A DNA stretch of 16,896 bases from Chlamydiia bacterium (GTDB taxonomy: Bacteria > Chlamydiota > Chlamydiia > Chlamydiales > RGXB01), in NCBI GenBank assembly GCA_040382515.1, contig JBEIFH010000022.1, positions 1 through 16,896 of the forward strand, written 5' to 3'. The stretch's first letter is position 1. Each line of letters opens with the position of its first letter. Both the position numbers and the translations under genes were made by a program. This document shows positions 464-15,823 of the stretch, piece by piece. Below the pieces are notes generated by a model. The model made no database searches, had not been told where the DNA came from, and saw only the letters and a list, made by a program, of their open reading frames with translations.

Positions 464-1526
464 ATTCCAACTGCAGCAACGGGTATAATTTCTTATCTTC
501 CATCACCGGATGGATGAGTGCTTCATAAAGTCGCTCATTGTACGTTTTCGCAGCCTGGCCGGAGCCATAAATACTGCCAAAGTACCATCCCGCCTCAAAA
601 CCTGTCGTCAAAATTCCGGCAGGAATATTTCCATTTAGGAAAAAGTACGTTGCAGTTCCTATGAATAGGGCATTGATCGAAAAAGCGGTAACAGCAGATT
701 GGTATTGACCTAGATAAGCATAGCCTGCTCCAGGGATAACCGCAAGTGTTTGGGCAACCAAGGGGGATTTCTTATGTTTGATGTAGGAGGTATGGGTCTC
801 GTCCAAAACAGATCGTAATTTTCCGGTCTTAGAGAAATCCAACTGGTCATAACTCAAAAAATGGTGCGCTTTTTGCGTGTCGAAAAGGGCTTTTTGGATC
901 GAAATATTCCCCTCTTTGGCAGGGGGCGCGTCCCGATCCAATATAGCAAATGCTGTTTTGGTGTCGGCCGTTTGTAAAGCATGGCCGACGAGGATCGGTT
1001 CGGCTATTTTTGGGTAATTTTGAGCTAATGCCTGGTGTACGCTTAAAGCTTTGTGCTTTTGTTTTGTGATTTCGTAGGCTTCACCCAAAATGAGAAGAAG
1101 GTCTTGGTAAGCTCTGAAATCGGGGTGCACGAAGGCGAGGGAGGAGGATTCGAAGGTAGAGACCAGGTCTTCATGTTTTTTCCCAAGGGCATAACACAAA
1201 AGTGTGTAGTACTCTACCTCATGTTTTCGTTGCATGGTCAGAATCGGATTGGGTTCCTCGCTTAAAAGAAATTCAGCGCGCTGAAAAGAGGTGATCGCAC
1301 GGTAAAGATCGAGTCGTTTGGCAAAGTGGACTCCCATTCGATATTCTGTTGCCCAAGAGGTTTCCAGCTCTTTAGGAGACAAAGGATCGAATGCAGAGGG
1401 TAAAGCCTGCACCATTTTTTCATGAACACTGTAATGAACGTTAGGGTTGATCTCATCCGATACCGATGTGCAGGAGAGCACGAGAGATAAAAAGAGGATT
1501 GGTACAGATCTAGTCCCTTTTGACAA
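453..1526 (-). CDS. Putative lipoprotein with TPR-like helical region and C-terminal TM2-like membrane segment
   Basis: The ORF track gives 453..1592. An in-frame TTG at 1526, preceded by GGGGTGG, yields MSKGTRSVPILFLSLVLS-C, a typical lipoprotein signal, and cuts the overlap with cdsC to 17 bp. TPR-like helices include YRMGVHFAKRLDLYRAITSFQRA and LLLILGEAYEITKQKHKAL. The C-terminal KSPLVAQTLAVIPGAGYAYLGQ plus hydrophobic helices is TM2-like. Confidence 0.65.
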   Translation of the reverse strand: MSKGTRSVPILFLSLVLSCTSVSDEINPNVHYSVHEKMVQALPSAFDPLSPKELETSWATEYRMGVHFAKRLDLYRAITSFQRAEFLLSEEPNPILTMQRKHEVEYYTLLCYALGKKHEDLVSTFESSSLAFVHPDFRAYQDLLLILGEAYEITKQKHKALSVHQALAQNYPKIAEPILVGHALQTADTKTAFAILDRDAPPAKEGNISIQKALFDTQKAHHFLSYDQLDFSKTGKLRSVLDETHTSYIKHKKSPLVAQTLAVIPGAGYAYLGQYQSAVTAFSINALFIGTATYFFLNGNIPAGILTTGFEAGWYFGSIYGSGQAAKTYNERLYEALIHPVMEDKKLYPLLQLEYGF

Positions 1527-4500
1527 GATCCACCCCGAAGTCAAAGGCTTCTGGATCGGATTGATCTCTATAGATGTCTTCTTGCTGCTCACTGATCTCC
1601 TTCCACTGCTCAGTTGATTGAATAATCTCGGGACGGATGAAAATGACTACGTCGGCATTTTCGTTTTCTTTAAGCGATTGGCTAAAAGCAGCACCAATCA
1701 TGGGGAGGCCTCCCAGGCAGGGAAGACCCGATTTTGCCACTGTTTTGGTATTACGGATTTGGCCGGACAGTACAACAAATGCTTTATCGGGAACATGGAC
1801 ACGTGTCTGCATGCTGGTTTTATTTGTCCTGATCCCGTTCACGGATTGAGTGTTCACATCGTTATTGTCATTCGTACCGGTATTAGCTTCCTCGGTAATC
1901 TCTTCATCTATCTCTAAAGTAATAATACCATTATCGCCAATATTTGGGGTAATGTTTAGAGACACTCCGATGTTACGGTATTCAAGGTTGGCATTCGTTG
2001 TTTGTGAGATACCCGATGTGGTGATGATGGATCCGGTAAACGGGACGTTTTGACCGACGAAAATTTGGGACATGCGGCTGTCTTGAGCGAGAATTTTTTG
2101 GTTGAGGATTGTTGTTGTGCGCCCCTCTTCTTGCAAAGCTGTAAGAAGGGAGGTGAGGGTAAGGTAGGATTTTCCACCATGAAAAATGATATCGCCTATG
2201 ATCCCCAGCTGGCGGGATGCGAGGCTGGGGAATAGATTGGGCGAGGGGCCGTTTACTGCATTAACGCCTGATGAAGAACTCCCTGCAGAGGAGGAAGCCC
2301 CTTTAACAGTATCTTGGAAGTTAGGTAAGTTTGCAGCGTCTACCCGTGGATTGTTTGTTCCAATACCTGCAAATTTACCTTTGAAATTACTGTAGCCACC
2401 CCAGCGTAGACCTATATCAAGAACGTCCCTTAAGGTTGTCTCGAGCACAAGCACCTCTATGAAAACCTGCTTAAGAGGGATATCGATCGATGATAAAATA
2501 TCTTTCAATTTCGTAAGAGTTTGCGGATCTCCTGTTGCTATGAGGGAGTTTGTCACCCGGATCCACTGCACCGAACTAATTGCTGTGATCAAAGATTCGT
2601 TTTTAGCGTTCTTTGAGAGCTGCAGCTCCTCACCGATTTGCTTGAGAGCCGACTGGATATCGGATCCCGTATGAAAATTCAATTTGTAGTTTAAAAAACC
2701 GATATTATCAAAGGACTCTATAGAGGTAAGGGGTTTAGCTGTTTCTGCAGTTGGGGTATCGAATTCCTGTAGTAGTTTCATGATCTGGTTGATATTTTCC
2801 TGAGCCCCGACAACTACGATCCTTCCATTCAAGAACTGAAGATTATCTATAGACTTTGAAAGCCCGTGGTCGTTCACCCCTTTATTCGAGATGTGATCCA
2901 TGTAGGCTTGCACCTCTTTGATCAGCTCCGGGCCGGACTTGTACACAGGTTTGTAATTTTGATAATTATCGATGACTTTTTTTCCGGTCATTCCAGGAAT
3001 TCTTTGGTCGAAAGACTCAAGGAGTTTCTCCACCTTTTCCAGGTTTTCCGGTGTGCCGGAAAAGACCAGTATTCCGTCGGTGATTTTCGCGCTGTAGACT
3101 GTTTTGACCAGATCCGGGTCTTCGTCTCTTATCTCTTTTGTGGTCGATTTGAGCTGTTCTAAAAGATCCTTAGCCGATTTGGTTTTTGGACTATAGCTAA
3201 GAAATGTGGACGTTCCTACTTGCGAAATCTTCGAAGTGGTTTGCGTTTGCAAATCGATGGCATTGATCATCTCCCGAACTTTTGCGATATTGACCTCATT
3301 ACCGCTGACAATAATCGAATTCGAATTTTTTACGAGCTTGATCCCCTTGAGTGTCTGTATTAGGCTTGGATCTGCGTTTCCGGAATTTTCCAAATCATTA
3401 GCTATCCCCTGGAGTGATCGGATCATTTCGGCTGCACTCATATGGGTTGGCCTGTAGATAATATACTGCGTCGAGGAGACGGTATGGATGTCGAGTTTGG
3501 TGATGATCTCGGTCAGTTGTTGGATCGTCTGCGGGGTTCCGCGAATGGTAAGCGTATTGTTTGCTTTGTTCCATTGGATATCTTTTACTGCACGGATAAA
3601 GCCCATGTTTTCGGGTGAGTCGGGTAGCTGCGATGCCATTTGATCCAGTTGCTCTACGACAAATTTTCCAGGGACATTGTGTAGTTTGACGATCGAAAAG
3701 CCGGTTGAAACTACCGGTTCCGGGAGTTTTGTTTGCGAATCGATGGCATTGATCATATCGCGAACTTTTCCGATATTGATCTCGCTTCCGCTCACTATGA
3801 TAGAATTCGAGTTCTTTACGAGCTTTATCCCTTTAAGCGTTTGTATGAGGCTCGGATCAGCGGTTCCCGATTTTTCGAGGTCGCTCGTGATCCCGTCAAG
3901 AGATTTGATCATTTCGGCTGCGCTCATATGGACCGGTTTGTAGATGATGTATTGGGTCGTGGAAACAGTATGGATGTCGAGTTTGGTGATAATCTCTGTA
4001 AGCTGTTGTATGATCTGCGGGGTTCCGCGGATGGTGAGCGTATTATTTGTCTTGTTCCACTGCAGGTCCCTGACTGCATGGATGAATCCGATGTTTTCGG
4101 GGGTATCGGGGAGCTGCGATGCCATTTGATCTAACTGTTCTTCGACGAATTTACCGGATACGTTCTGCAGTTTGATGATGGAGAAGCCGGATGATGCTGT
4201 CGTCTGTTGGTCGATTTTCGAAATAAGGTCGCTGATTTCCTGAATAGTGTGTGGTGATCCCTGAATAACGATAGAATTTGTATCTTTATTCCACTTGAGT
4301 GTATCCATCGCATTCAAAAAATCACCATTTGCAGTGTCATCCGGGATGTCTTTGGCCATCGATCGCAAATGGTCCATCACCATTTTTCCTGAAGCAAACT
4401 TTAGTTTTACGATGGAAAATGTGAGATCCGATTTCACCTGTTGCGGTGTGTCTATAGTTTTGATGAGGGTCTGTACCTTGCTGATTTCAACAGGTTCACC

Positions 4501-5493
4501 AATAAAAAGGATGAAATCGGGGGCGATCAAAGTTGCATCGTTGACCAGCCTAGTGAATCCGGCTGAGCTATACTCGGTTGTTTTCGAATCTTTAGAGATG
4601 GCTCTCAGAGCGGTCGAGATGGATTGGATGGAACGGTTGGCACCTTTATAAAGATAAATGTTACCGTTAGTGATAGAGCCTTGTTGCTTTGAGGCTTTCT
4701 CTTCGATCTGTTGAAAGACATCTAGCGCCTTTTCGGTAAGCTCTTTGCTGCCGACAATAAAAACCCTTTGCGTCTCCTCTTGGGGAAGCAAGGAGTAGCT
4801 TTTCTGGCCGCAAACGGTGTCTAAAATAGGTGCTGCGATCGAAACTAGCTCTGTTGGCTGGAAAAATACCGTCTCGTAAGGGACGCTGACCGCACCTGTT
4901 TCCGGTTGATCGACTGCCTTAACCAAAGAATCGATCGAGAGGATATTTTGTATAACATCGGATATGATGATAAGCTTCCGCTCGGGGAATGCTTCGATCA
5001 CGCTTGTTGAGGATAAATAGGGCTGGAGCAGAGTTAAAATTGTCGCAACGGGGCTATTTCTAATTTGATAGATTTTTGTGACTATCGGAGCGACGGTTTC
5101 CCCTTTATTCAGATCAGAGCCAAATAATAGGGGCATCTCTTTAATGTCCGGATTTTGGTGAATGACGAGCGTACCGTTTTCCTCAAGAATACTGAATCCC
5201 TGTATCCTCAAGGTTTGCACGAAACCCGAGACAATCGTTTCTACTGTCATCTCTTCATCGGAAACCAAATTGATCGAAAAATTCAATTCAGCCGGGTTGT
5301 ATACGAAATTGAGCCCGGCTATTTCGCTGAGAAATCCAATAAATTCCTCGGCTTTCACTTGGCTGAAATTGATTTTATAACGCGATTCGCGAGACATTTT
5401 TTGTTTGGGACGGCCCCAAGCATTCAGACCAAATGGTATGATTGAAGCAGTTAAGCAGTAGAAAAGTACATATCTTTTAAAGGCTGGCACCAT
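1510..5493 (-). CDS. sctC: Type III secretion outer-membrane secretin CdsC/SctC, greatly enlarged (1327 aa)
   Basis: N-terminal signal peptide, then an N0 domain (YKINFSQVK...LNFVY) and repeated secretin N-domains. The C-terminal secretin domain has KQVFIEVLVLET, IFVGQNVPF, EYRNIGVSLNITPNI, GLPCLGGLPMIGAAFS and VVIFIRPEII. It sits at the end of the chlamydial cdsD...pkn5-cdsC cluster. Confidence 0.95.
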   Translation of the reverse strand: MVPAFKRYVLFYCLTASIIPFGLNAWGRPKQKMSRESRYKINFSQVKAEEFIGFLSEIAGLNFVYNPAELNFSINLVSDEEMTVETIVSGFVQTLRIQGFSILEENGTLVIHQNPDIKEMPLLFGSDLNKGETVAPIVTKIYQIRNSPVATILTLLQPYLSSTSVIEAFPERKLIIISDVIQNILSIDSLVKAVDQPETGAVSVPYETVFFQPTELVSIAAPILDTVCGQKSYSLLPQEETQRVFIVGSKELTEKALDVFQQIEEKASKQQGSITNGNIYLYKGANRSIQSISTALRAISKDSKTTEYSSAGFTRLVNDATLIAPDFILFIGEPVEISKVQTLIKTIDTPQQVKSDLTFSIVKLKFASGKMVMDHLRSMAKDIPDDTANGDFLNAMDTLKWNKDTNSIVIQGSPHTIQEISDLISKIDQQTTASSGFSIIKLQNVSGKFVEEQLDQMASQLPDTPENIGFIHAVRDLQWNKTNNTLTIRGTPQIIQQLTEIITKLDIHTVSTTQYIIYKPVHMSAAEMIKSLDGITSDLEKSGTADPSLIQTLKGIKLVKNSNSIIVSGSEINIGKVRDMINAIDSQTKLPEPVVSTGFSIVKLHNVPGKFVVEQLDQMASQLPDSPENMGFIRAVKDIQWNKANNTLTIRGTPQTIQQLTEIITKLDIHTVSSTQYIIYRPTHMSAAEMIRSLQGIANDLENSGNADPSLIQTLKGIKLVKNSNSIIVSGNEVNIAKVREMINAIDLQTQTTSKISQVGTSTFLSYSPKTKSAKDLLEQLKSTTKEIRDEDPDLVKTVYSAKITDGILVFSGTPENLEKVEKLLESFDQRIPGMTGKKVIDNYQNYKPVYKSGPELIKEVQAYMDHISNKGVNDHGLSKSIDNLQFLNGRIVVVGAQENINQIMKLLQEFDTPTAETAKPLTSIESFDNIGFLNYKLNFHTGSDIQSALKQIGEELQLSKNAKNESLITAISSVQWIRVTNSLIATGDPQTLTKLKDILSSIDIPLKQVFIEVLVLETTLRDVLDIGLRWGGYSNFKGKFAGIGTNNPRVDAANLPNFQDTVKGASSSAGSSSSGVNAVNGPSPNLFPSLASRQLGIIGDIIFHGGKSYLTLTSLLTALQEEGRTTTILNQKILAQDSRMSQIFVGQNVPFTGSIITTSGISQTTNANLEYRNIGVSLNITPNIGDNGIITLEIDEEITEEANTGTNDNNDVNTQSVNGIRTNKTSMQTRVHVPDKAFVVLSGQIRNTKTVAKSGLPCLGGLPMIGAAFSQSLKENENADVVIFIRPEIIQSTEQWKEISEQQEDIYRDQSDPEAFDFGVDLVKRD
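3245..4188 (-). repeat. Intragenic tandem duplication in cdsC, period 486 bp (162 aa, two N-domains per unit)
   Basis: Copies lie at about 3731-4188 and 3245-3702; for example gatgccatttgatc occurs at 3632 and 4118. A manual alignment of GFS...QT shows 25 differences in 153 aa (about 84% identity). Confidence 0.95.
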
Positions 5494-5604: not shown

Positions 5605-6312
5605 TTAAAAAGGGACCGTTTCATCACCGGTTGGATCGCAATCTAGTCGAAAGCCTAAGTTGTAGAGCTCTTTTTCTAATTGGTCAGCATCGTGAAACCA
5701 GATAGCATTCCAGGATTGTTTTTTTGCAACGAGAATATTTTCTAATTTATCATCGATGAAAAGACAGCTACATGGCTCGACGCCGATTGTTTCTATGACA
5801 AACTGGTAGGCCTCTTTTTGCGGTTTGCGCAGGCCGATCTCATACGACAAAATTAATTGCTCGAAGGGCTCATAATATCCGAGTTCTTTGTATAAATCGG
5901 CTTTGTGTTTTTCCGTGTTAGAAAAAAGGATCACATTTTTTTGTTTTTTGAGAGCTTGGATAATTTTAAAGACTTTCTTATCCATTAAAATGGAGCCTTT
6001 GATCTCTTTTTTAAATTGTTTAAGAAAAGAAGAGGGCATCTCTTTACCGAAATTTTTGAAAATATTTTTAAAAAAATTTTTATCCTCATCCCCATGCAGA
6101 AGGGCCTCTTTCCTTTCCTTTAGAATTTCTTTTGCAGTTTCTTCGCTAATCTCCAACTCTTGAGACAAAAATGCCTCCACAAGCCGCGTATCCTTTTGGA
6201 CGACCACATTTCCGAAGTCAAAAATAACCGTTTGGACTTTATTTGCAGGGGTATCAACATTTACATTTGCCTTGCAAAATAGAGCCAAAAGGAGAGTAAA
6301 GAGGGAAATCAT
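5605..6312 (-). CDS. HAD-superfamily phosphatase (IA variant 3, YihX-like) with N-terminal signal peptide
   Basis: Motif I VIFDFGNVV, motif II LFSN, motif III GLRKPQ and motif IV FIDD are present. The N-terminus MISLFTLLLALFC is hydrophobic. Confidence 0.9.
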   Translation of the reverse strand: MISLFTLLLALFCKANVNVDTPANKVQTVIFDFGNVVVQKDTRLVEAFLSQELEISEETAKEILKERKEALLHGDEDKNFFKNIFKNFGKEMPSSFLKQFKKEIKGSILMDKKVFKIIQALKKQKNVILFSNTEKHKADLYKELGYYEPFEQLILSYEIGLRKPQKEAYQFVIETIGVEPCSCLFIDDKLENILVAKKQSWNAIWFHDADQLEKELYNLGFRLDCDPTGDETVPF

Positions 6313-6345
6313 AACTACTTTTTAAAATATTCAATAAGTATTGCT

Positions 6346-6374
6346 ATTATATAGCATTCAAAAGAAAAAGACAA
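6346..6374 (-). promoter_or_regulatory. sigma70/sigma66-type promoter for the HAD gene (and possibly cdsC)
   Basis: On the minus strand, TTGTCT (6374-6369), a 17-bp spacer and TATAAT (6351-6346) end 33 bp upstream of the HAD ATG. Confidence 0.7.
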
Positions 6375-6394
6375 ATAAACGAAAAGGGGGGGGG

Positions 6395-7879
6395 TCAGTC
6401 AAGACGGCGGATTACTAGGGCTGCGGAGGAATCACCTATAGAATTTTTTTGAAAGATATCCTTTGTAAACGAGTCGGGTGATACCTTTGTGAGTTCCAGT
6501 TTCCCACCGTCGATCCCTATAATAATGGTATCGAGCGAATCGAGGCGGTCCTGGATAGGATTTGGAAAGGGGCCGCTGTTACCGAAAAGGCGGCCGGTGG
6601 CCTCAAGGGTACGCAGGGTGTTTGAAGTATACGAGTGGTGGTCAATATAGGAGTTCCCAAACGAAAAAAGGTGGAAAAGGTTTTCTGTCGTGCTCACATG
6701 CAAAAGTTGTAAATGTAGTAGATAACCCGCACCATTTTCAAGTCGCTCAAGAAATTTGGAAAGGGAGAACTCATTTCTTACCGTCATCCACTCTAAAAGA
6801 AGCTTTCCCCTCTCCATGACAGTTTTGAGTTCCAAAAGAGATTGCATATCTGTTTCGGGACTAGAGGCTATTAGTGCAAGATAGGAACCGTCAGGCAAGA
6901 TATGGTGCAAAACAGCGTAGTTTTCCCCTTTGGGGTGGGGGTTGAGTGCCAATTCCACCGAAAGATCCATCAGCCCTTCAGGGATGGGAGCTATCAGCAG
7001 CCGCTTGCTCTGTTCTATGCTTTCAAGAAGATCTTTCAATGTGTCTTCAGAGCTCTCCTCTTGTGCCAGAAGCCCTTTTTTGAGATACACGGAGAGGTCT
7101 GCAATCATCTCCATCACATCCTCATAGCGACCATTCGGATCCGTTTGAGTGGCTTTTTTTACTATTTCGCGCAAATGTTTTGGAATCAGCTCCAGATCAA
7201 TCCTTCCAAATGAGACTCGACCTAAGATCAGCTCGTAGAGAATGACACCCATAGCATAGATATCGCTACGGGTTTGGACTTTTTTAGATCCCCCTTTTTC
7301 CTCTAAAGGCATGTAGGAGGGGGTGCCGTAGAGAGGGCCCTCTAAAAGCTCCTCTTGAGTCCCAGCGATTCCAAAATCGACTAATTTGATTTCGGATGTC
7401 TCTGTGATCAGGATGTTTTCCGGTTTTAGATCTCTGTGTACGATCCCTACTGAATGGAGATACAGTAGGGCGTACAGCGTTTTTGTAACGATTTCAATCG
7501 ATCTTTTTAGGGATAAGGAGCGTTGCAAAATAAATTGCTTCAAGGAGATTCCGGGGACAAATTCTACCGCAATGTACATTCCGTCTTCATAGGCCCCTTC
7601 GCCTAAATACCGGACGATATTCGCGTGGGAGAGCTCTTTGAGGATGGCCCCTTCCTTGAGGAAGATTTTTTTTCTTTCCGGATCTTTTAGAACATCGTGG
7701 CTTAAAACTTTAAGCACCGCCAACTCCCGCTTTTGCTCATCCATACCTAGATACAGTCGGGAGAGGGCTCCTGTTGTGAGAAGCTTCTCTATACGGTAAG
7801 GGCCGATTTTTGCAGGTAGATCCGATGCGATCGTCTCGGGGCGCAATCGGACGGTGGGTTCATGGTAAAACTGGACCAT
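6395..7879 (-). CDS. pkn5: Hanks-type Ser/Thr protein kinase Pkn5 (CT673 positional ortholog) with degenerate PP2C/SpoIIE-like C-terminal domain
   Basis: Kinase motifs are AVLK, HANIV, HRDLKPENIL, DFG, GTPSYMPLE, SDIYAMG and DPNGRY. The ATG directly abuts the cdsQ stop (TAG-ATG), as in the chlamydial order cdsQ-pkn5. Confidence 0.9.
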   Translation of the reverse strand: MVQFYHEPTVRLRPETIASDLPAKIGPYRIEKLLTTGALSRLYLGMDEQKRELAVLKVLSHDVLKDPERKKIFLKEGAILKELSHANIVRYLGEGAYEDGMYIAVEFVPGISLKQFILQRSLSLKRSIEIVTKTLYALLYLHSVGIVHRDLKPENILITETSEIKLVDFGIAGTQEELLEGPLYGTPSYMPLEEKGGSKKVQTRSDIYAMGVILYELILGRVSFGRIDLELIPKHLREIVKKATQTDPNGRYEDVMEMIADLSVYLKKGLLAQEESSEDTLKDLLESIEQSKRLLIAPIPEGLMDLSVELALNPHPKGENYAVLHHILPDGSYLALIASSPETDMQSLLELKTVMERGKLLLEWMTVRNEFSLSKFLERLENGAGYLLHLQLLHVSTTENLFHLFSFGNSYIDHHSYTSNTLRTLEATGRLFGNSGPFPNPIQDRLDSLDTIIIGIDGGKLELTKVSPDSFTKDIFQKNSIGDSSAALVIRRLD

Positions 7880-9079
7880 CTATTCTAAAACTTTGAAAAA
7901 AAGTTGCTGATCAAATTCGACAATCTCTCCACGGCGAAGGATCTGCCCGTTCAGCGTCAAATAAACTGTCTTTGGGTCCAGATCGACTTTAAGGGTACTC
8001 TCCGAGTTCAAATGGGCCAAGGTTTTGTAGGGGATCGCTATCGAACCCAGTTCGATTTTGCAGTTGAGAGCAATCTCATCTAGAACAACGTTCTTTTTGT
8101 GAGCTTTCGTATGAGGAGTCGTGTGGTGCGCACGCGCCCTTTGTTCATCTAGCTCCTCCCCATCCTCCAAAAGATTCCCCTCATCTTCTTGATGTTCGAA
8201 ACTCTTTTCATCATCAAAGGTCTCTTCTTCATCTTCATGATCTCTAGAGGACATAAATTTCTCCTGAGGTGTTACGGAAAAAGGTGTGAACCGGTGCAAA
8301 TGAGCATCTTTATATTCGGCGCTCAGTAAAGGGGTATCTTGATAACAGATATGCACCAAGTAGTTTTTATCAAGGACCTCTCTTGAGATTCCTTCCAAAT
8401 GGACAAGATCGAGTGCTTCTAAACTCTTGATCTCTTTTTGTGTCAAGCGGACTTCTCCAAGCTCGATATGGACAGGGACATCGATATCGGGATGATCCTC
8501 TTGATGCGAGACGGGATGGTGATGGTAGAACTCATTGATCTTTTCTAGTGTTTTTACCGGAACGATAAGTTTTGGTGTCAACGAAAGTCCGGGTATTTGC
8601 AAAAGGAAATCAAAGACTTCAAATAACCCTTCAGAGGGTTGCGCGGTCGCCAATGTCATTGAGAGACCCTTGAAAAGATGCATCTCTTCTATCGTTGCCA
8701 AGCCTTTGAGAGCTAAAAATTTCACGACCCCTTTAAAAATCTCAGTAGAGCTGGGGAGGTTTCCTTTAGTGAAATACAGATGCCCTTTTTCGATATCTTG
8801 ACCCCTAAACAAAAGGAAGACAGGGGCCTTTACAGGCTCTAAATGGACTGCCTGTACGAAAGGTTCGGGCCCAAGCTCATGGTATATGGTATCCAGATCT
8901 GAGGTGGAAATAGATTGCATCTCTACTGAAGTTTCAGCAGCGTGCAGGTGCTTTTTAAGAATGGGCTCAAGGTCGGCAAGGTGTAGTTTTGGGACACCTC
9001 CAAAGGGAGAAGCACGGAGCTTTTCAGGCAACAGGAAACGGAGTTTTTTGATCCAGCTAGAATGCTTGTTCATATTCAT
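7880..9079 (-). CDS. sctQ: Type III secretion sorting-platform/C-ring protein CdsQ/SctQ (FliM/FliN-like)
   Basis: Two SPOA/FliN-like domains (DIDVPVHIELGEVRLTQKEIKSL and LDEIALNCKIELG...VYLTLNGQILRRGEIVEF) are separated by an acidic linker. The gene lies just upstream of pkn5. Confidence 0.9.
   Translation of the reverse strand: MNMNKHSSWIKKLRFLLPEKLRASPFGGVPKLHLADLEPILKKHLHAAETSVEMQSISTSDLDTIYHELGPEPFVQAVHLEPVKAPVFLLFRGQDIEKGHLYFTKGNLPSSTEIFKGVVKFLALKGLATIEEMHLFKGLSMTLATAQPSEGLFEVFDFLLQIPGLSLTPKLIVPVKTLEKINEFYHHHPVSHQEDHPDIDVPVHIELGEVRLTQKEIKSLEALDLVHLEGISREVLDKNYLVHICYQDTPLLSAEYKDAHLHRFTPFSVTPQEKFMSSRDHEDEEETFDDEKSFEHQEDEGNLLEDGEELDEQRARAHHTTPHTKAHKKNVVLDEIALNCKIELGSIAIPYKTLAHLNSESTLKVDLDPKTVYLTLNGQILRRGEIVEFDQQLFFKVLE
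8252..8265 (-). promoter_or_regulatory. Internal ribosome binding site and in-frame ATG in cdsQ (predicted short SctQ-C product, 124 aa)
   Basis: The minus strand reads AGGAG-AAATTT-ATG. The ATG at 8254-8252 is in frame (Met276) and upstream of the second SPOA domain. Confidence 0.65.
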
Positions 9080-9614
9080 TCACACGATACACAGTTCTTT
9101 GTTCTTTGCAAAGATTTTTTATTGTAGATGCATGTCGGGGGTTATTTTGAATAGAAGGGGGGATAATAAGGCGCAATTCATAGGGAAAAACAGAAGAGGC
9201 AATCTGATTGTAGAGATCTTGTAGACTTGGAATCAAGTGCTCGAGAGCTTTATCGGACCCCTGTATTTCCAATTGAATCTCCATTTGTGCAGTGTCGTAA
9301 TAACGCACTTCAAACTCGATAGTTTCCCCAAGAGTTTCGAGCGGGCTTGCTAGCTGAAACCTTGTTGCTTCAAATCCCTCTTTTTTTCGGCATTCAAAAG
9401 CTTGAAGAACCTGATGTTTTACTTCAGTGAAAAAAACATCAATCTCCTTTGATGCACCGTTTGGTTCGCTCCCGTTTAAGGAAAGGATCTGAAACGGGGA
9501 GGGGAGCTGTAGACATACAGGAGCAAAAAGATTTTCATAGGGTTCAAACGGTTTCGGATCGTTTGTTAACAATTCGTTTTGTTTGTAAGAACAAAGCTGC
9601 CCTGAAATTTCCAT
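9057..9614 (-). CDS. Short CdsP/SctP-like protein (FliK/T3S4-like C-terminal domain only), paralog of 10746..12179
   Basis: EGFEATRFQLASPLETLGETIEFEVRYYDTAQMEIQLEIQGS...L...L..Q aligns by eye with QGKTTTSIVLHMPNSGLDGAHIDIEHYDTAPHAFNISFFSS...L...L..Q of the long CdsP. The stop overlaps the cdsQ start. Confidence 0.65.
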   Translation of the reverse strand: MEISGQLCSYKQNELLTNDPKPFEPYENLFAPVCLQLPSPFQILSLNGSEPNGASKEIDVFFTEVKHQVLQAFECRKKEGFEATRFQLASPLETLGETIEFEVRYYDTAQMEIQLEIQGSDKALEHLIPSLQDLYNQIASSVFPYELRLIIPPSIQNNPRHASTIKNLCKEQRTVYRVNEYEQAF

Positions 9615-9633
9615 ACACTCTCAAGCATAAGGA

Positions 9634-10290
9634 TTATGGGGATTTGTGAGAATTTAAATTCTCATGTTTTTCCCTAAGATTTTTGAGGCGGGCCAAGATG
9701 TACTCCCCTTCGACAGCATCTATCAAAATAAAGCTTTTAAGCTCCTCCTCGTAGGCAAAGGTATCCCCCGTCCCGACATCAAAGTACCAGCCCCAAAGTT
9801 TTAACAGTCCCTGATCGTATTTTTCTTTTATAAGGGGGAAAGTTTTGAGATGTTCGATCTGCTTGAGGATATTTTCTTTAGCCAAACTTTCAATGGAAGG
9901 ACATTCTTTTGGGTTTTTTCCGTAAGAAAGCCAAAATTGCAGACTTTCAGGGAGAGCTTCTGTCCCCCCCATAATTGCGTGCATAGCGCCGCAGTTGCTG
10001 TGGCCGCAAACAATGATATTTTCGATCGGCAGCTGGCTTACAGCGAATTCGATGCTGGCCCGTTCAGAGCAAAGAACATGGTAGGGGGGGACAATATTTC
10101 CGGCGTTGCGCAGAACGAACAGGTGCCCCGGATGCGTTGATGTGAACAAATTCGGAACCACTCGGCTATCGGAGCAGGTGATGAAAAGCGAGTCGGGTTT
10201 TTGTCCCATAGCAAGATGGCTGAACCGGTTTCTATAATCGCTTAAGTGGAGTTTTCTGAACTCTAGAATTCCTTGAACAAGCTTTAACAT
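9634..10290 (-). CDS. Beta-class carbonic anhydrase
   Basis: Zn-ligand motifs ITCSDSRV and VCGHSNCGAM are present, plus RNAGNIVP, GQKP and LWGWYFDVGTG. An AGGAG RBS lies at 10302-10298. Confidence 0.95.
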   Translation of the reverse strand: MLKLVQGILEFRKLHLSDYRNRFSHLAMGQKPDSLFITCSDSRVVPNLFTSTHPGHLFVLRNAGNIVPPYHVLCSERASIEFAVSQLPIENIIVCGHSNCGAMHAIMGGTEALPESLQFWLSYGKNPKECPSIESLAKENILKQIEHLKTFPLIKEKYDQGLLKLWGWYFDVGTGDTFAYEEELKSFILIDAVEGEYILARLKNLREKHENLNSHKSP

Positions 10291-10310
10291 GGTTGCACTC
10301 CTAAAACCAA

Positions 10311-10362
10311 GAACAGTCCGTTTTCAAAAACGGTAATCGGGCGGCTTGAAGATTTACTGTTC
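10311..10362 (-). promoter_or_regulatory. Candidate structured 5' leader (three-way junction) upstream of the carbonic anhydrase
   Basis: The minus strand reads GAACAGT-A-AATC-(12 nt)-GATT-A-CCGTTT-TTGA-AAACGG-ACTGTTC. These nested complementary segments end 8 nt before the AGGAG RBS. Confidence 0.35.
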
Positions 10363-10745
10363 ACTTTCCTGTGGATCTCTTTTATAGACTTTTGAATTGG
10401 GGCGAGCCTTTTTTCGCGAACCTTATCCTAATCTTTTTGCCCGGCTGCATCTGCCCTGTTGAAGAACAGTGGCCTACTTGTAGGCCGTTATAGCTGAGAA
10501 AATATCTGAACAACACTCTCAAAAAAAGGTTCGATCCTAACTTAAAGGCTTCTGGCTCTATTTCAGAGACGCTTTTCGAAAGAGATCGATTCTTTTATAG
10601 CCGATTTAACATGAAAAAAGGATTAAAAATCCAGAAGAAACAAGGGATCTACTAGGTAAAGAGGGGGGGGATTTTTCCAATTTTATCTCAACCTTAGGGA
10701 TGATTTAATCTTTGGTTCGTCTGGTTTTTTCGCGATAGAGATGTT

Positions 10746-12179
10746 TTAGCTTTTGCTTTTTTTGACCTGGGTGTCACGGCGGCGGCGCTCCTCTTTAGTC
10801 TCACTAAGCAAAAGGGGCTTTTTAACCGAGATCTCAAATTGGGGAAGATTGCTGCGTAGCTGTTGTTCGAGTGTTGTGATATTGGCGTCGAGAATTTTTT
10901 GACCCTCGGGAGATGAGAAAAAACTGATGTTGAATGCGTGGGGAGCGGTGTCATAATGTTCAATATCGATATGTGCCCCGTCAAGACCGGAATTCGGCAT
11001 ATGAAGGACAATCGAGGTGGTGGTTTTTCCCTGAAATTGCATAACGGTCATCATACCGACGAGTTTTTGAAAGAGCTCAAAGACTTGAGGGGGAAATTGT
11101 GCGTAAGGTGGTGTTGTAGTGAGGGGGCTTGTTGAGGAGGTCTCAATCGCGGTAGGAGCCTGTAGGGGCTGAGGACCTTCTTGGGGTTGTTTTGAGGGTA
11201 TAAGAGAGGGTGGGGGCAATACGGGCCCCTCTTTTTCCCTTTTTTCGGACGAAAGATGCCGATCTTTATCGTGGTGGGAGGCTACCGGATGGGGATGCCC
11301 TTCAAGAGGTTGCTTCAAAGTAGAACTGTCGGATTGGGGAGTGGCGAGTTTTTCTTTTTCTTTTTTGGGAACGTGATGCAAAGCTTTTTCGTGATGCATA
11401 GAGACCAGAGGGGGGGGGCTCATGGGAGCCGAATCAGGTGGTGCTTTAGGATGGGATGGATGCAGCTTTTTTAATTTTTGTTCAATAGCATCCAGTTCTT
11501 TAAAGTGGTCGTGCGATCTTTTATTTGCCGAGGGAGTTTCATCATCCTCTGATGTGTCGGGTGGGGTTGATGCAGTCGACAACGGCGGTGGAGTTGAGTG
11601 AGCTGGTGGGGAGGTATAAGAAGGCCCATTTTGGCTTTGATCGGCATCTTTGCTTTTTAAGTTGATGGAGTCTTGATCTGTCGATGAAGATGGTGGAGTA
11701 TCCTCTGATGTGTCGGGTGGGGTTGATGCAGTCGACAACGGCGGTGGAGTTGAGGGAGCTGGTGGGGAGGTATAAGAGGGCCCATTTTGGCTTTGATCGG
11801 CATCTTTGCTTTTTAAGTTGATGGAGTCTTGATCTGTCGATGAAGATGGTGCAGCGATATTTTTAAAAAGATTTTCGTTATCACTACCGTTCTGGCTTAC
11901 CTCTTGAGAAGTTTGTCGTTTCCCTCCAAGGGAGAATTCAGTGGTCTGTTTTTTCGACATCAGTTCAGAGAAAAGATCGGGTTTTGCCTCGATTTGTTTG
12001 TCCTCTTCCCCTTCTTCTTCGTCAGTTTGCCGTGTCGGGTTACGCTTGTTTTGCTGTTGGGAAGCATCGCTATCGTCAACGGCCATCACCTTCTTAAATT
12101 TCTCTGACGTAGGGGCATTTTTTCCCGAATCAAGAGGATCTCGTTGTGGCTGGCCTGAAACGGGATGAGGATTTTGCAT
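10746..12179 (-). CDS. sctP: Needle-length control/ruler protein CdsP/SctP (CT671 positional ortholog), 477 aa
   Basis: The gene follows cdsO. A long disordered Pro/Ser/Thr/Asp/His-rich region precedes a compact C-terminal FliK/T3S4-like domain (FELFQKLVG...IDIEHYDTAPHAFNISF...LEQQLRSNL). A GAGG RBS lies upstream. Confidence 0.75.
   Translation of the reverse strand: MQNPHPVSGQPQRDPLDSGKNAPTSEKFKKVMAVDDSDASQQQNKRNPTRQTDEEEGEEDKQIEAKPDLFSELMSKKQTTEFSLGGKRQTSQEVSQNGSDNENLFKNIAAPSSSTDQDSINLKSKDADQSQNGPSYTSPPAPSTPPPLSTASTPPDTSEDTPPSSSTDQDSINLKSKDADQSQNGPSYTSPPAHSTPPPLSTASTPPDTSEDDETPSANKRSHDHFKELDAIEQKLKKLHPSHPKAPPDSAPMSPPPLVSMHHEKALHHVPKKEKEKLATPQSDSSTLKQPLEGHPHPVASHHDKDRHLSSEKREKEGPVLPPPSLIPSKQPQEGPQPLQAPTAIETSSTSPLTTTPPYAQFPPQVFELFQKLVGMMTVMQFQGKTTTSIVLHMPNSGLDGAHIDIEHYDTAPHAFNISFFSSPEGQKILDANITTLEQQLRSNLPQFEISVKKPLLLSETKEERRRRDTQVKKSKS
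11544..11851 (-). repeat. Near-perfect tandem duplication in cdsP, period 156 bp (52 aa)
   Basis: 11544-11695 and 11700-11851 match over 152 bp with only 2 mismatches (11599/11755 and 11622/11778). The unit encodes PSSSTDQDSINLKSKDADQSQNGPSYTSPPA[P/H]STPPPLSTASTPPDTSED. Confidence 0.97.
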
Positions 12180-12388
12180 GCTACCTCTTGATAGGTTAGA
12201 TTTTTCTTAAAAATGCAAATCCGGCGCTGCACTTTAAGCATATATCCTACGCTTAAGGGATACATTTGAAAAAAATCAAGAGAGTTTTTTATAGAGAGGG
12301 GATGAAACCCTACTCCCAATCTAGATTATAGTCTTTTAAATGGAGTTTGGGAGTGTTTTAAAGGGTCTTACCGAGCATCTTAAAGATT

Positions 12389-12895
12389 CTATTTTCCGCC
12401 GGGCCTGTATTTTCGCGCCGTATGAATGGTAGTTCCGATCTCATCGGTCTCTTTGTTCTCTTCGGCAGCTTCAAGGCGGCGCATCTCGACCTCCCAGTCC
12501 TCTCTGTGCAAACGCAATTTCTCCACATCCTGGCGTCTTTGTTCAAGTAGGACTCTCGCTTTTTCTACCTCATCAACCGCTTTTTTTACCTCTTTTTGTT
12601 GTTCAACAACTTTAGCATGTTCTCTTTTGAGCTTCTCTTCAACAACCACTTTAAGGTACCGCTCTTTGATCATGATCTGATCGCTTGTGGTCCCTTTTTC
12701 CATCTCGTCCATCATTTGACGGATTTTATCGATTTTGTGTTGTTTTATGAGTTCAAGTTCTTTGGTATATTGATCGAGCTTTTTTTGCTCTTTTTCGAGA
12801 AATTGTTTTTTTTCCTGAAGGCTCTTTTCAGCCTCTTCAAGCCGTTTTTTTTTGATTTGTTCGATTTCTTCGAGCGGATATTTCGGCTTTTTCAC
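12389..12895 (-). CDS. sctO: Type III secretion stalk protein CdsO/SctO (FliJ/YscO-like coiled coil)
   Basis: 168-aa Lys/Glu-rich coiled coil ([20 protein letters not shown]...[11 protein letters not shown]...E.DEIG). The GTG start overlaps the cdsN TGA (GTGA at 12895-12892). Confidence 0.88.
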
Positions 12896-14196
12896 CTAAA
12901 TAGGGCCCTTAATTGCTGCAGGGTCTCTTCATACGTCGATTTTTCGGTGACCCCTTGCTTTAAAAAACGCTGCACCCGCTCGATATATTTGATCGCATAA
13001 TCGGCGGCTTTATCAGAGCCTGGTTTGTATTCGCCGATACGGATCAATAATTCATTTTTTCGATAGTTGGCTAAAACTTCGCGGATCTTCCCGATGAGCT
13101 CCATCTGCTCTTTGGAGCAGACGTGGCTTAAAATACGGCTTGCCGACGAGAGGACGTCGATCGCCGGGTAATGGTACTGCCGGGCAAGTTCGCTTGATAA
13201 AATAATATGCCCGTCAAGGATCGAACGAACCTCATCCGACACAGGTTCATTGAGGTCGTCTCCGGCAACTAGTATGGTATAAAATGCTGTGATAGATCCT
13301 TTATCGGAATTGCCCGAGCGTTCCAAAAGGCGGGGGAGAGTTGCAAAAACCGACGGAGTAAAACCGGCTCTTGCAGGGGGTTCGCCCGCGGCGAGTCCCA
13401 CTTCCCGTAAAGCCCGGGCAAAACGGGTCACCGAATCCATCATCAAAATGACTTTTTTTCCCTGGTCTCGAAAATACTCGGCGATGGCGGTACCCACATA
13501 AGCTGCCGTCAAACGCATCTGGGCGGCTTGATCTGAGGTGGAGACGATCACAACCGATCTTGCCATCCCTTCCGGACCAAGATCATTTTCAAGAAATTCC
13601 CGAAGCTCGCGCCCCCTTTCTCCAATCAAAGCAATCACGTTGACATCGGCGCGCGCGTAACGGGCGATCATCCCTAGTAGAGTCGACTTTCCTCCGCCGG
13701 CTGCAGCAAATATCCCGACACGCTGCCCTTCACCGCAGGTGAGAGCGCCGTCTATACAACGGATCCCGGTAGAAATGGGGGTTTCAATCATTTTCCGCTT
13801 CAAAGGATCGGGTGGGGGAGACATGACAGGGTAAGTTTCCTGGAGGTTTAGAGGGCCTTTTTCTTCTTCGTCTAAAGGGTTGCCAAGCCCGTCCAAAACG
13901 CGTCCGAGCAACTCTGGTCCTACCTTGATATGCAACGTAGTTTTCAGCGGAACCACCTCGGAGGAGGGGCCCACTCCCGTCATTTCCGACATCGGGGAGA
14001 GAAACACTTCATCTTTTGTAAATCCGACAACTTCCGCCAATAAGGGGGTTCCCGGGCGTTTGATCATGCAAATTTCGCCCATCTTCACTTCGGGTACGAC
14101 CGCCTTGATCAAAAGGCCGACGATTTCGGTGATACGACCGTTCATGGCCGTCAGCGAGATCTCGTCCAGCTGTTTAAAGACCGATTCAAAATCCAT
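12892..14196 (-). CDS. sctN: Type III secretion ATPase CdsN/SctN (FliI/YscN family)
   Basis: Walker [20 protein letters not shown], Walker [37 protein letters not shown] and [12 protein letters not shown] are present. Confidence 0.97.
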
Positions 14197-14207
14197 AAAA
14201 AAGCCCG

Positions 14208-14846
14208 CTAGATCTGGACGTTGAAAAGTGTTTTGATGCTTTCAACTGCTTTAGATAAAACAATCGAAGAAAAATCCAACTGCTGCTGCGCCCGATTTAA
14301 TTTCACCTGGGCCAAAAGAAGGTCTCCCGGATTCATCGTCTGTCCGTCTGCAGAATATTTTGTGATCATTGCCTGGGCACTTTCGAGCTGCTCTTGTCCG
14401 TCCCCGATGAGCGCGATAAATTTGGCTATAGGGTTCTGTAACGCCTTAGTGTCTACGTCTGGACCAGTATCAACACCCACTTTTTGTGCAGCTTCGCGGA
14501 TGTTTGTATGGGCATCCTCAAGTTTGCTACGCACTAGAAATTTTTGAGAAGGTTTCAGTTTCAGGTTTGGGGTATTCAATTTTTGGTTGATGTCACCCAG
14601 TTGGGTGGACGTTGTCTTCATTTGCTGCTGGACCGAATCCATGGTGGGGGGGCCACTGATATTGGATTGTGGAGAAAGGGCCTGCATAGGGGTGGGGCTT
14701 TGCTGCACCTTGTTTGCGGGCTCTTCTCTCATGTAATCGGCAAAAGGGCGTTTCCCCGCCTCTGAGCTGGTGTTCTGGTCAATCGGTGACATACCGGGTA
14801 TGCTGGAAGGGTCGGAAAGTCTTGGGGGAACGTCGTTGTCTGCCAT
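14208..14846 (-). CDS. CT668-like T3SS-associated protein; C-terminus resembles inner-rod SctI
   Basis: It sits between cdsG and cdsN like CT668. The N-terminus is disordered and Pro/Ser-rich, and the C-terminus is [42 protein letters not shown]. Confidence 0.75.
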
Positions 14847-14849
14847 GGT

Positions 14850-15290
14850 TTATCTTCTTTTGTGGCTGCTGATTTCAGAGGGTGAGGGGGGAGCTTTGAT
14901 AAAATTTTTGTAGAAATTAGTGGCGTTTTCTGTCAATTTACGTATTTCGGGATCTTTCGTCTTGTCATGTGTTTTGTGAAGCATATCTGCCCCTTCTGCC
15001 GACATATCGTTGCTGAATGTGAGGCAAACCCCGAGAAGAGCTTGGGCAAACTCGTTGTGAGGCTCTTTTATAAGGGCTTGTTTGACATGTACAATAGCAG
15101 GTTTGAGCTCCAATTTGAGCAAATGCATGTAGCTGAGGCCGATCTTCGGCATCACATTGTCCCGATCAAGGATTTCGGCCGCCTTGAATAATTTGACAGC
15201 GCTATCTTCATCTTGATGCATAATAGCTACGAATCCCGCCTCAAGGAGAAGGACAAAATCTTTTTTGTGATTTTTAATAAACTGCAACAT
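14850..15290 (-). CDS. cdsG: Needle chaperone CdsG (TPR-like, YscG counterpart)
   Basis: It lies directly after the needle gene and has TPR-like helices (DFVLLLEAGFVAI..DEDSAVKLFKAAEIL...IGLSYMHLLKLEL...EPHNEFAQALLG). An AGGAG RBS lies at 15300-15296. Confidence 0.85.
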   Translation of the reverse strand: MLQFIKNHKKDFVLLLEAGFVAIMHQDEDSAVKLFKAAEILDRDNVMPKIGLSYMHLLKLELKPAIVHVKQALIKEPHNEFAQALLGVCLTFSNDMSAEGADMLHKTHDKTKDPEIRKLTENATNFYKNFIKAPPSPSEISSHKRR

Positions 15291-15302
15291 AGTGTCTCCT
15301 TA

Positions 15303-15545
15303 CTATCCGCGCATGTTGGAGATAGAATTTTTTGCAATACCATTCATACTGCTGATCACGTTAGATATGGAATCTCCGATTTGGGTCAAATTACCCATCA
15401 TGAATTGCAACATCAAAAATTGGCCTGGGGCCACCGAAGACATGTTTTTCGACAATGATGCCACAAGACGCGCCACCTTGCCTTGAGCTTCGGTGTACCT
15501 ATCGATCATCAGCTTGAATGAAATCTTATCACTTGGTACGCTCAT
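15303..15545 (-). CDS. sctF: Type III secretion needle subunit CdsF/SctF
   Basis: 80-aa helical hairpin between the two chaperone genes. GQFLMLQFMMGNLTQIGDSISNVISSMN resembles the chlamydial CdsF C-terminal helix (G.MF.LQF.M..LSQ..ES.SN....N). Confidence 0.85.
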   Translation of the reverse strand: MSVPSDKISFKLMIDRYTEAQGKVARLVASLSKNMSSVAPGQFLMLQFMMGNLTQIGDSISNVISSMNGIAKNSISNMRG

Positions 15546-15546
15546 A

Positions 15547-15780
15547 CTATGACCACCTAGTAGAATGTTTGAGAATTTTTTCTAGGGAAAGATAGCCGTG
15601 CAAAAGATGTCCTACATCTTCAAATTCTGCAGGATTTGTCCCGTTATGAATCAGAGTTTTGAGCTCTTGAATCCTTTTTTCACTTTTTTCCTGGATTTCG
15701 GCCCTTTTTTTCGGGTCTTTGAGCTCGTTTTCCAAGTCGAACTTGAAAATTTCTCGCCCCGGTTTATTTTGTCCCAACAT
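15547..15780 (-). CDS. cdsE: Needle co-chaperone CdsE (CT665-like)
   Basis: 77 aa with FDLENELKD...RIQELKTLIHNG...F.....LLHGYLSLEKIL, the chlamydial CdsE pattern. It lies between cdsD and cdsF. Confidence 0.85.
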   Translation of the reverse strand: MLGQNKPGREIFKFDLENELKDPKKRAEIQEKSEKRIQELKTLIHNGTNPAEFEDVGHLLHGYLSLEKILKHSTRWS

Positions 15781-15823
15781 GTCTAACCAACATTTCTTCT
15801 TTTAAGTCTTTAAATCTCATAAG

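Follow-up and report, generated by a model that had tools for sequence, protein, structure and literature searches.

A chlamydial injectisome secretin with eleven N-domains that probably builds a long periplasmic conduit

The injectisome secretin encoded in a 16,896-nucleotide stretch of DNA from a Chlamydiia bacterium (Chlamydiales, RGXB01; GenBank assembly GCA_040382515.1, contig JBEIFH010000022.1; called here the window) carries eleven N-domains behind N0, and the SctC/CdsC-type protein probably forms a long periplasmic conduit of about twelve rings. The secretin, P0001, has 1327 amino acids (aa), is specified by a minus-strand open reading frame (ORF) at 1510-5493, and was placed in the CdsC/SctC position of a type III secretion system (T3SS) cluster from the ORF list, the translation, and Pfam and NCBIfam scans. 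The window is one entire contig (C22); the draft genome to which it belongs has 46 contigs, measures 1.39 Mb, and is 92.65% complete. The domains that follow N0 are true secretin N-domains, namely N1, N2, eight extra units and N3, the extra units being of the N1/N3-like type with one helix more.

Domain layout and secretion system of P0001

An earlier note on this DNA had described eleven repeated units at 2476-5085, a range that corresponds to residues 137-1006 of P0001 and lies inside the ORF. The units do start where the note had placed them, at residues 137, 201, 278, 357, 436, 513, 598, 675, 762, 842, and 931. They can be aligned on each other, the motif KQVFIEV follows at residue 1008, and Pfam recognizes the repeats, with a whole-protein Secretin_N E value of 8.1e-64 and 9 separately significant stretches. 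When the units are scanned singly, Secretin_N is the top family for 11 of 11, with E values below 1e-5 for eight and weaker ones for unit 10 (3.5e-3), unit 2 (0.021), and unit 3 (0.057); six of the eleven reach the 28.2-bit cut-off by themselves.

The possibility, raised in the same note, that the repeats do not fold as secretin N-domains was not borne out by modelling of the monomer or by fold searches. An AlphaFold2 model of residues 1-1100, made from 26 aligned sequences (mean predicted local distance difference test score, pLDDT, 69; predicted template modelling score, pTM, 0.30), contains 11 compact domains with pLDDT values of about 70-88, joined by linkers below 50 exactly at the unit borders. 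Units 1 and 2 have the beta-alpha-beta-beta-alpha topology, and units 3-11 carry one added helix after the first. A Foldseek search with this model ranks crystal structures of secretin N0-N1-N2 first (5e-13; XcpQ N0-N2). A second AlphaFold2 model, restricted to units 5-6 and made from 46 aligned copies of this two-domain module from relatives, reaches a pLDDT of 85; all 22 of its Foldseek matches at E<=1e-3 are secretins, and KH-domain proteins come next. By VIA-align, the first unit of the module superposes on InvG N1 with a Z score of 9.2 and a root-mean-square deviation (rmsd) of 1.9 Å over 62 residues, and on GspD N3 with 1.4 Å over 58 residues, while the second superposes on InvG N3 with 1.8-2.6 Å.

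Read from its N terminus (all coordinates on the minus strand), P0001 begins with a probable Sec signal peptide at about residues 1-27 (5413-5493), recognized in the translation by a basic n-region, a hydrophobic core, and NAW-G, and modelled with one helix at 4-18 at low pLDDT. N0 extends over about residues 41-112 (5158-5373; PF21305 at 41-108, E 2.5e-8; E42-E112 in the model). Unit 1, the N1 equivalent (residues 137-200; 4894-5085; Secretin_N E 2.4e-6), and unit 2, the N2 equivalent (201-277; 4663-4893; pLDDT about 80), are both covered by solved GspD N0-N2 chains from the PDB, which align to residues 34-264, so that the weak Secretin_N match of unit 2 is accompanied by an alignment to GspD N2. 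The first extra unit, unit 3 (278-356; 4426-4662), is matched by Secretin_N over part of its length only, and is modelled as an N-domain with the extra helix. It is followed by unit 4 (357-435; 4189-4425; E 3.1e-7), by units 5 and 6 as the first copy of the two-domain module (436-597; 3703-4188; E 7.2e-7 and 3.2e-7), by units 7 and 8 as its second, tandemly repeated copy (598-761; 3211-3702; E 2.1e-7 and 2.7e-8), by unit 9 (762-841; 2971-3210; E 5e-6), and by unit 10 (842-930; 2704-2970), units 4-6, 9, and 10 being separate domains in the model as well. Unit 11, the gate-proximal N3 equivalent (931-1007; 2473-2703; E 1.1e-8), lies where solved chains of GspD N3 plus secretin domain begin to align (residue 936) and where the match of short chlamydial forms to P0001 resumes (about residue 903-931). 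The secretin domain itself, with outer-membrane barrel and gate, occupies residues 1119-1292 (1618-2139; PF00263 E 4.1e-33 over the full profile, 1-169); its nearest solved chain is that of XcpQ, a type II secretion system (T2SS) secretin (5wln, 4e-40), with InvG at 9e-9.

A low-complexity insertion rich in Gly, Ser, and Asn, seen in the translation at about residues 1033-1095 (2209-2397) with pLDDT values of 30-44, separates KQVFIEV from the Pfam secretin core. Nans et al. (2015; PMC4682100) mention type II-specific insertions in CdsC and a further ring outside the outer membrane, on its outer face, to which the insertion of P0001 may be compared as a candidate counterpart.

The earlier note had also assigned P0001 to the T3SS, and gene order, a separate T2SS operon, and a tree all support this assignment as an orthologue of SctC/CdsC. 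P0001 closes a cluster sctD-cdsG-CT668-sctN-sctO-sctP-sctQ-kinase-secretin, all on the same strand. The Chlamydia trachomatis cluster CT664-CT674 has the same gene order, with cdsC in the same place at the end of cdsN-O-P-Q-pknD. Among the loci of 80 relatives, many of which end before the upstream genes, the kinase lies upstream of the secretin in 46, sctO in 29, and sctN in 24, and downstream of it lie a homologue of a 379-aa gene in 78 and yidD in 71. No gsp genes were found among the window neighbours by the Pfam and NCBIfam scans; a separate operon elsewhere in the genome (contig C1) holds gspD (779 aa), gspE, gspF, and pseudopilin genes. When a tree is built from the N3 and secretin region (80 rows; quick IQ-TREE search, LG+G4, with support from the Shimodaira-Hasegawa-like approximate likelihood-ratio test, SH-aLRT, only), the chlamydial CdsC-type proteins form one clade of 69 rows with an SH-aLRT of 100, in which P0001 stands with Chlamydiaceae-type CdsC. 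The GspD of its own genome is placed among non-chlamydial GspDs, apart from P0001.

Judged by profile scores, P0001 could instead be taken for the T2SS secretin GspD, its place beside T3SS genes being incidental. It exceeds the cut-off of the NCBIfam GspD model TIGR02517 (363.3 versus 351.35 bits), its nearest solved chains are T2SS secretins, and its relatives are labelled GspD or PulD by several sources. The SctC model TIGR02516 yields 77.2 bits, short of the 238.45-bit cut-off, which counts against the T3SS assignment; the PilQ model yields 159 bits against a cut-off of 284. However, the GspD score is summed over 7 stretches of repeated N-domains. A 924-aa CdsC-type protein from family f4, whose length and architecture agree with published CdsC, scores 298.5 bits with the GspD model (below cut-off) and 81.5 with the SctC model, and a Simkania sp. 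protein scores 88.2 with the latter; because these two fail as well, TIGR02516 covers no chlamydial CdsC. The GspD-model score does not make P0001 a T2SS part, given the separate gspD operon, the scoring of the f4 protein, the tree, and the T3SS synteny retained across relatives, and this alternative is very improbable. A T2SS-like origin of the chlamydial T3SS secretin has, moreover, already been published (Abby and Rocha, 2012, PMC3459982; Nans et al., 2015, PMC4682100). Like all CdsC, P0001 descends from a GspD-type T2SS secretin, and the automatic annotation of these proteins as T2SS GspD would mislead inventories of secretion systems in chlamydiae.

The GspD/PulD/XcpQ proteins, the ancestral type of the chlamydial T3SS secretin (PMC3459982), rank first in both sequence and fold when N0-N2, N3 together with the secretin domain, and the extra units are compared with other proteins. 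They differ in having three N-domains after N0 and a gsp operon, whereas P0001 has eleven, lies in a T3SS cluster, and coexists with a real gspD elsewhere in the genome. InvG, YscC, MxiD, and EscC share the role and the machine of P0001, and the two units of the module fit InvG N1 and N3. They are, however, only about 560-610 aa long (PMC4682100) and belong to another secretin lineage (PMC3459982); the sequence similarity between P0001 and InvG is weak (E 9e-9).

Spread and turnover of the N-domain array

Short-form relatives show where the additional units lie. In 10 of 10 short-form genomes, sampled from ten other families (f3, f4, f5, f6, f11, f13, f15, f16, f17, and f24), P0001 is matched only at residues of about 30-277 and 903-1322. 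Since the short forms match only these flanks, the eight extra units (units 3-10) constitute an insertion between N2 and N3. The N-terminal region differs as well. By Pfam, N0 starts at residues 270, 244, 308, and 137 in four short forms and at 41-59 in seven multi-unit forms. Published CdsC of Chlamydiaceae has 921-924 aa, a hydrophilic extension of about 250-270 aa before N0, and 3 Secretin_N stretches (PMC4682100), and the 924-aa f4 protein likewise has N0 at 270-339 and only 3 such stretches. P0001 differs from CdsC in lacking the extension, as the earlier note had observed (N0 starts at 41 versus 270 in the f4 protein), and in having eight additional N-domains between N2 and N3; in tree clade, in GspD-like character (PMC3459982, PMC4682100), and in failing the SctC model the two are alike. 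The long N-terminal extension belongs to the short-form branch and not to the whole CdsC clade. A short-form relative from family f16 (L107, G064:C2:78800-88500, minus strand) has 2516 aa with only 2 detected units, its size being due to a very long N-terminal extension of another kind.

About 90 chlamydial proteins of 800-1982 aa that share the Pfam set of P0001 came from a protein search, and at least 420 species genomes encode a relative of P0001. Of 400 sampled Chlamydiota genomes, 396 match it at E<=1e-20, and about 230, as read off the table, give a strong match (E<1e-80), which was taken to indicate a multi-unit form. These strong matches come from families f1, f7, f9, f10, f12, f19, f20, f22, f23, f25, f27, f28, f30, f37, and f40, and named relatives include Simkania sp., Simkaniaceae, Candidatus Neptunochlamydia, Candidatus Amphrikana, and Rhabdochlamydiaceae. 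Units were counted with a profile iterated over 172 distinct proteins; a first profile, derived from the units of P0001 itself, matches those units by construction. The iterated profile drifted towards the extra-unit type and serves for relative counts only, which are about 2 too low because it misses units 1 and 2 (N1 and N2). Counted in this way, 160 multi-unit proteins contain 5-30 detected units, with a median of 10, and their length follows 589 + 78 x units (r 0.97). In the named Simkania sp. protein 15 units were detected over 1772 aa; the extremes are 2261 aa with 22 and 2810 aa with 30. The 30 units of the 2810-aa relative are old, maintained domains, as they are only 35-58% identical to each other.

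The rarity that the earlier note had implied for such a secretin therefore did not hold up. P0001 has 9 detected units, which is the modal value (41 proteins), and 82 of the 160 relatives have more, so the array is the norm in a large chlamydial clade. The individual protein is ordinary for its clade, and it is the clade-wide feature that deserves attention. The note had also allowed that this domain count might already be both the norm and described in related families; the first part applies within the clade, and for the second no description was found in the literature. A full-text literature search, with figures and supplements outside its scope, returned no description of N-domain arrays in chlamydial SctC or other chlamydial secretins, and the available parts of PMC12591485, PMC7935935, and PMC2811131 do not describe such arrays for chlamydial SctC. 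The T2SS-like character of CdsC is already known, and the N-domain array goes unmentioned in the CdsC literature as far as it was accessible. In the tree, the multi-unit forms constitute one group (56 proteins, support 99) with the short forms outside it. This grouping is consistent with a single origin of the expansion in one large chlamydial clade, which would have been followed by much change in number.

Recent change in number can be followed within P0001 and its close relatives. Units 7-8 repeat units 5-6 in tandem (3245-4194; period 486 nt, 2.0 copies, 79% matches). The two module copies are 76% identical in DNA and 79% in protein, with a ratio of nonsynonymous to synonymous substitution rates (dN/dS) of 0.084 at a saturated dS of about 1.5, and are under strong purifying selection. 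Among close relatives (59-97% identity), proteins of 1170 aa (9 units) have one copy of the module, those of 1323-1327 aa (11 units) two, and those of 1482-1484 aa (13 units) three. A tree of module copies groups them by lineage and not by position, and the copies of one three-copy protein are nearly identical to those of a two-copy protein. The lineage-wise grouping implies repeated recent duplication or concerted evolution. The array turns over as a two-domain module of 162 aa, held under purifying selection, is gained and lost.

Repeats are often misassembled, and in a draft genome of 46 contigs a long array might be an artefact of assembly or gene calling, for instance through fusion of ORFs or through collapse or expansion of a repeat. 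Even the most similar copies in P0001, however, share only 76% DNA identity, and two other studies provide contigs that run across the duplication junction (3396-4786 with 1 difference, 3327-4098 with 0 differences) and reveal no alternative joints there. Because these independent assemblies cross the junction, the array is not an assembly artefact. Other sources further provide a 97%-identical protein of 1327 aa and 75%- and 68%-identical proteins of 1323 and 1327 aa, and 160 relatives share the plan; the artefact explanation can for practical purposes be dismissed.

DNA nearly identical to positions 2400-5200 of the window occurs in lake and freshwater metagenome runs of several studies. Nine runs, two of which are possibly the source, hold at least half of the sampled words, and from these matches the organism, which is uncultured, seems to be a freshwater lineage that recurs. 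In two metatranscriptome libraries from lakes (two studies), contigs of a close relative match parts of the gene at about 93-97% identity. They hint that the P0001 gene is transcribed, though the libraries may hold DNA, and gaps in depth in these RNA-library contigs carry no meaning.

Periplasmic conduit and needle ruler

In solved secretins, every N-domain gives one ring of the periplasmic vestibule (PMC5745081). By analogy, each N-domain of P0001 would form one ring of a roughly 12-16-mer, and the protein would stack about 12 such rings in the periplasm. With about 3-4 nm for each, which is our own estimate, the conduit would extend for about 35-48 nm below the barrel and would exceed that of GspD or InvG in length by a factor of two to three. 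How far the outer membrane lies from the SctD/SctJ rings would be set or permitted by the number of rings, and a longer needle and rod, as measured by SctP, would have to go with it. In the earlier note, too, a taller periplasmic tube was proposed, which would imply a wide periplasm, a thick envelope, or a telescoping basal body. The predicted geometry of the unit 5-6 pair would be compatible with stacking, as it resembles that of GspD N2-N3. The pair superposes on N2-N3 of assembled GspD channels with an rmsd of 3.6-4.2 Å over 119-134 residues, the best fit being to 5wq7 residues 168-321 (119 residues, 3.6 Å), with 4.0-4.2 Å for 5wq8, 6hcg, and 5zdh.

The candidate ruler is P0122, an SctP/CdsP-like protein of 477 aa encoded between sctO and sctQ (10746-12179, minus strand). 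Its name is inferred from position and composition, and no Pfam family matched it. It consists of a disordered linker rich in Pro, Ser, and Thr, followed by a globular C-terminal domain, and matches to its C-terminal 133 aa occur in 251 of 401 Chlamydiota genomes. The linker contains a tandem duplication at 11544-11851 with a period of 156 nt (52 aa), 2.0 copies, and 98% matches. This duplication is very recent, and the ruler, like the secretin, therefore changes length by tandem duplication. In many relatives, a second ORF of about 210-250 aa adjoins the SctP-like gene, and its C-terminal domain matches the SctP C-terminal query. The genome with the longest secretin, G350, has such an ORF of 233 aa (L114:1234-1935), and the genome of the window has only one match.

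Coupling between ruler and secretin was assessed from open-frame lengths paired by hand in 77 genomes; split frames, frames cut by contig edges, and frames interrupted by stops were left out. Longer secretin frames tend to go with longer SctP frames (Spearman rho 0.54, p 4e-7, n=77). For each aa of secretin the Theil-Sen slope adds 0.26 aa of SctP (0.20-0.32), or about 20 residues per 78-aa unit. Genus means also give a rho of 0.54 (36 genera), and values centred within genera give 0.41 (p 0.0015). A first test, based on the loci only, had been weak (n=29, Spearman 0.44, p 0.017). The lengths of other neighbours do not follow that of the secretin, rho being 0.00 for the 379-aa gene (n=62), -0.21 for the kinase (n=40), 0.24 for yidD (n=58), and 0.22 for sctO (n=25). 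The ruler figure for YscP is 1.9 Å per residue. A fully extended chain measures 3.7 Å per residue (PMC6972891). Over this range (1.9-3.7 Å per residue), 20 SctP residues span about 4-7 nm, which is of the order of one ring.

Several results weigh against such coupling and the long stack that it would serve. The statistics are not corrected for the tree. Family means give a rho of 0.35, which is not significant, and within family f10 the rho of 0.31 falls to 0.16 without the two genomes on which the trend rests. The within-genus Pearson r drops to 0.04 once G350 is included, a genome in which the longest secretin (2810 aa, 30 detected units) is paired with an SctP-like ORF that is complete, lies next to sctN and sctO, and has only 349 aa. 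In the genus of the window, the 13-unit genome G049 (1484-aa secretin frame) has an SctP frame of 430, shorter than the 486 of G000. The trend is noisy, and in view of G350, the window's own genus, and the family means, a coupling of SctP length to secretin length is no more than suggestive. The AlphaFold2 model, moreover, does not fix the overall shape of P0001, since its linkers have pLDDT values below 50 and its pTM is 0.30, and a straight stack of at least 30 rings would exceed 100 nm, seemingly too long for a small cell.

As an alternative, the extra N-domains could form a flexible, compressible, or partly folded-back array, acting as an accordion, tether, or cage, in place of a long rigid tube. 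The basal body would then adapt to a changing periplasm or bind envelope components, and the envelope would not be much wider than that of Chlamydia. The linkers at every unit border are predicted to be disordered, and close relatives have 9, 11, or 13 units without a matching change in SctP, much as the 2810-aa secretin has its short ruler. In C. trachomatis, the basal body shortens from 34 to 29 nm on host contact, a change credited by the authors to linked periplasmic domains (PMC4682100), and the width of the periplasm rises from about 14 nm to about 29 nm towards the pole with the injectisomes (PMC4682100, PMC4336559). On the other side stand the N2-N3 geometry of assembled channels in the predicted unit 5-6 pair, the positive overall rank correlation with SctP length, the strong purifying selection on both module copies, and the stacking of N-domains as rings in every solved secretin (PMC5745081). 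A flexible array seems rather unlikely, and a conduit of about twelve rings is the arrangement that we favour for P0001. More tentatively, and as a possibility that we would not call probable, the number of rings could be an evolvable length setting of the injectisome in a large clade of environmental chlamydiae, where modules of one or two domains, gained or lost, would lengthen or shorten conduits of about 40 to more than 100 nm (7 to about 32 rings) and SctP would tend to co-evolve at about 20 residues per ring. Were this so, envelopes at these injectisomes would be far wider or more extensible than in any described T3SS.

The closest sequence and fold relatives of P0001 are the T2SS GspD proteins, and its closest functional analogue is the six-ring PilQ of Thermus thermophilus. 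Proteobacterial injectisome SctC proteins have N0-N1-N3 only. To our knowledge, the secretins of all solved injectisomes have two or three N-domain rings. Thermus PilQ has six rings (N0-N5), is 350 Å long, and has a tail that was read as spanning a wide periplasm (PMC5745081). Both proteins are secretins with an enlarged number of beta-alpha-beta-beta-alpha ring domains, stacking in P0001 being suggested by pair geometry. PilQ, however, belongs to another secretin branch and serves a type IV pilus and DNA-uptake machine, whereas P0001 lies in a T3SS cluster, and its six rings compare with a predicted twelve in P0001 and up to about 32 in relatives. Tandem turnover of modules is not mentioned for PilQ in the available part of PMC5745081. 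The six rings of PilQ have been called unusual and among the largest characterized; P0001 has twelve domains in the periplasm, and about 9-32 are carried by a large share of the chlamydial diversity known. If these domains stack, the injectisomes concerned would be the longest trans-envelope channels known and would offer a natural series for studying the matching of basal-body length to periplasm width and needle-ruler length. If they do not stack, secretin N-domains would have a second, new way of arranging.

Neighbouring genes and other secretin-like genes

The genes upstream of the secretin (5605-16819) are all on the minus strand and were named from the Pfam and NCBIfam scans, apart from two ORFs. 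Beginning at the far end, they are CdsD/SctD, cut by the contig end (15824-16819), an 80-aa ORF taken from the ORF list (15303-15545), CdsG (14850-15290), a CT668-like protein (14208-14846), SctN (12892-14196), and SctO (12389-12895). Beyond the SctP candidate come a beta-class carbonic anhydrase (9634-10290), SctQ (7880-9079), with a 185-aa ORF between these two, a Ser/Thr kinase (6395-7879), and a HAD hydrolase (5605-6312). The carbonic anhydrase and the HAD hydrolase are inserted inside the T3SS cluster; they occur in 3 and 1 of the 80 loci, respectively, nearly all of them from the closest relatives.

Downstream, the 379-aa gene (P0123; 453-1592, minus strand; from the ORF list and translation) overlaps the end of the secretin gene and is followed by YidD. 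P0123 has a lipobox-like LVLSC near its N terminus and a glycine-rich hydrophobic C terminus. The Pfam scan gave no family match, with TPR hits only below threshold. TPR lipoproteins pilot PilQ, and P0123 might be an accessory or pilotin-like lipoprotein.

The genome also encodes a third, small secretin of 446 aa (L113:2999-4339, contig C29, minus strand), made up of N0, a single N-domain, and a secretin domain. It shares 39% identity with residues 937-1294 of P0001, is without the low-complexity insertion, and falls inside the multi-unit CdsC clade of the tree (support 93, long branch). No secretion genes were found near it at its locus, where it adjoins a 645-aa protein of no known family and two OppA-like genes.

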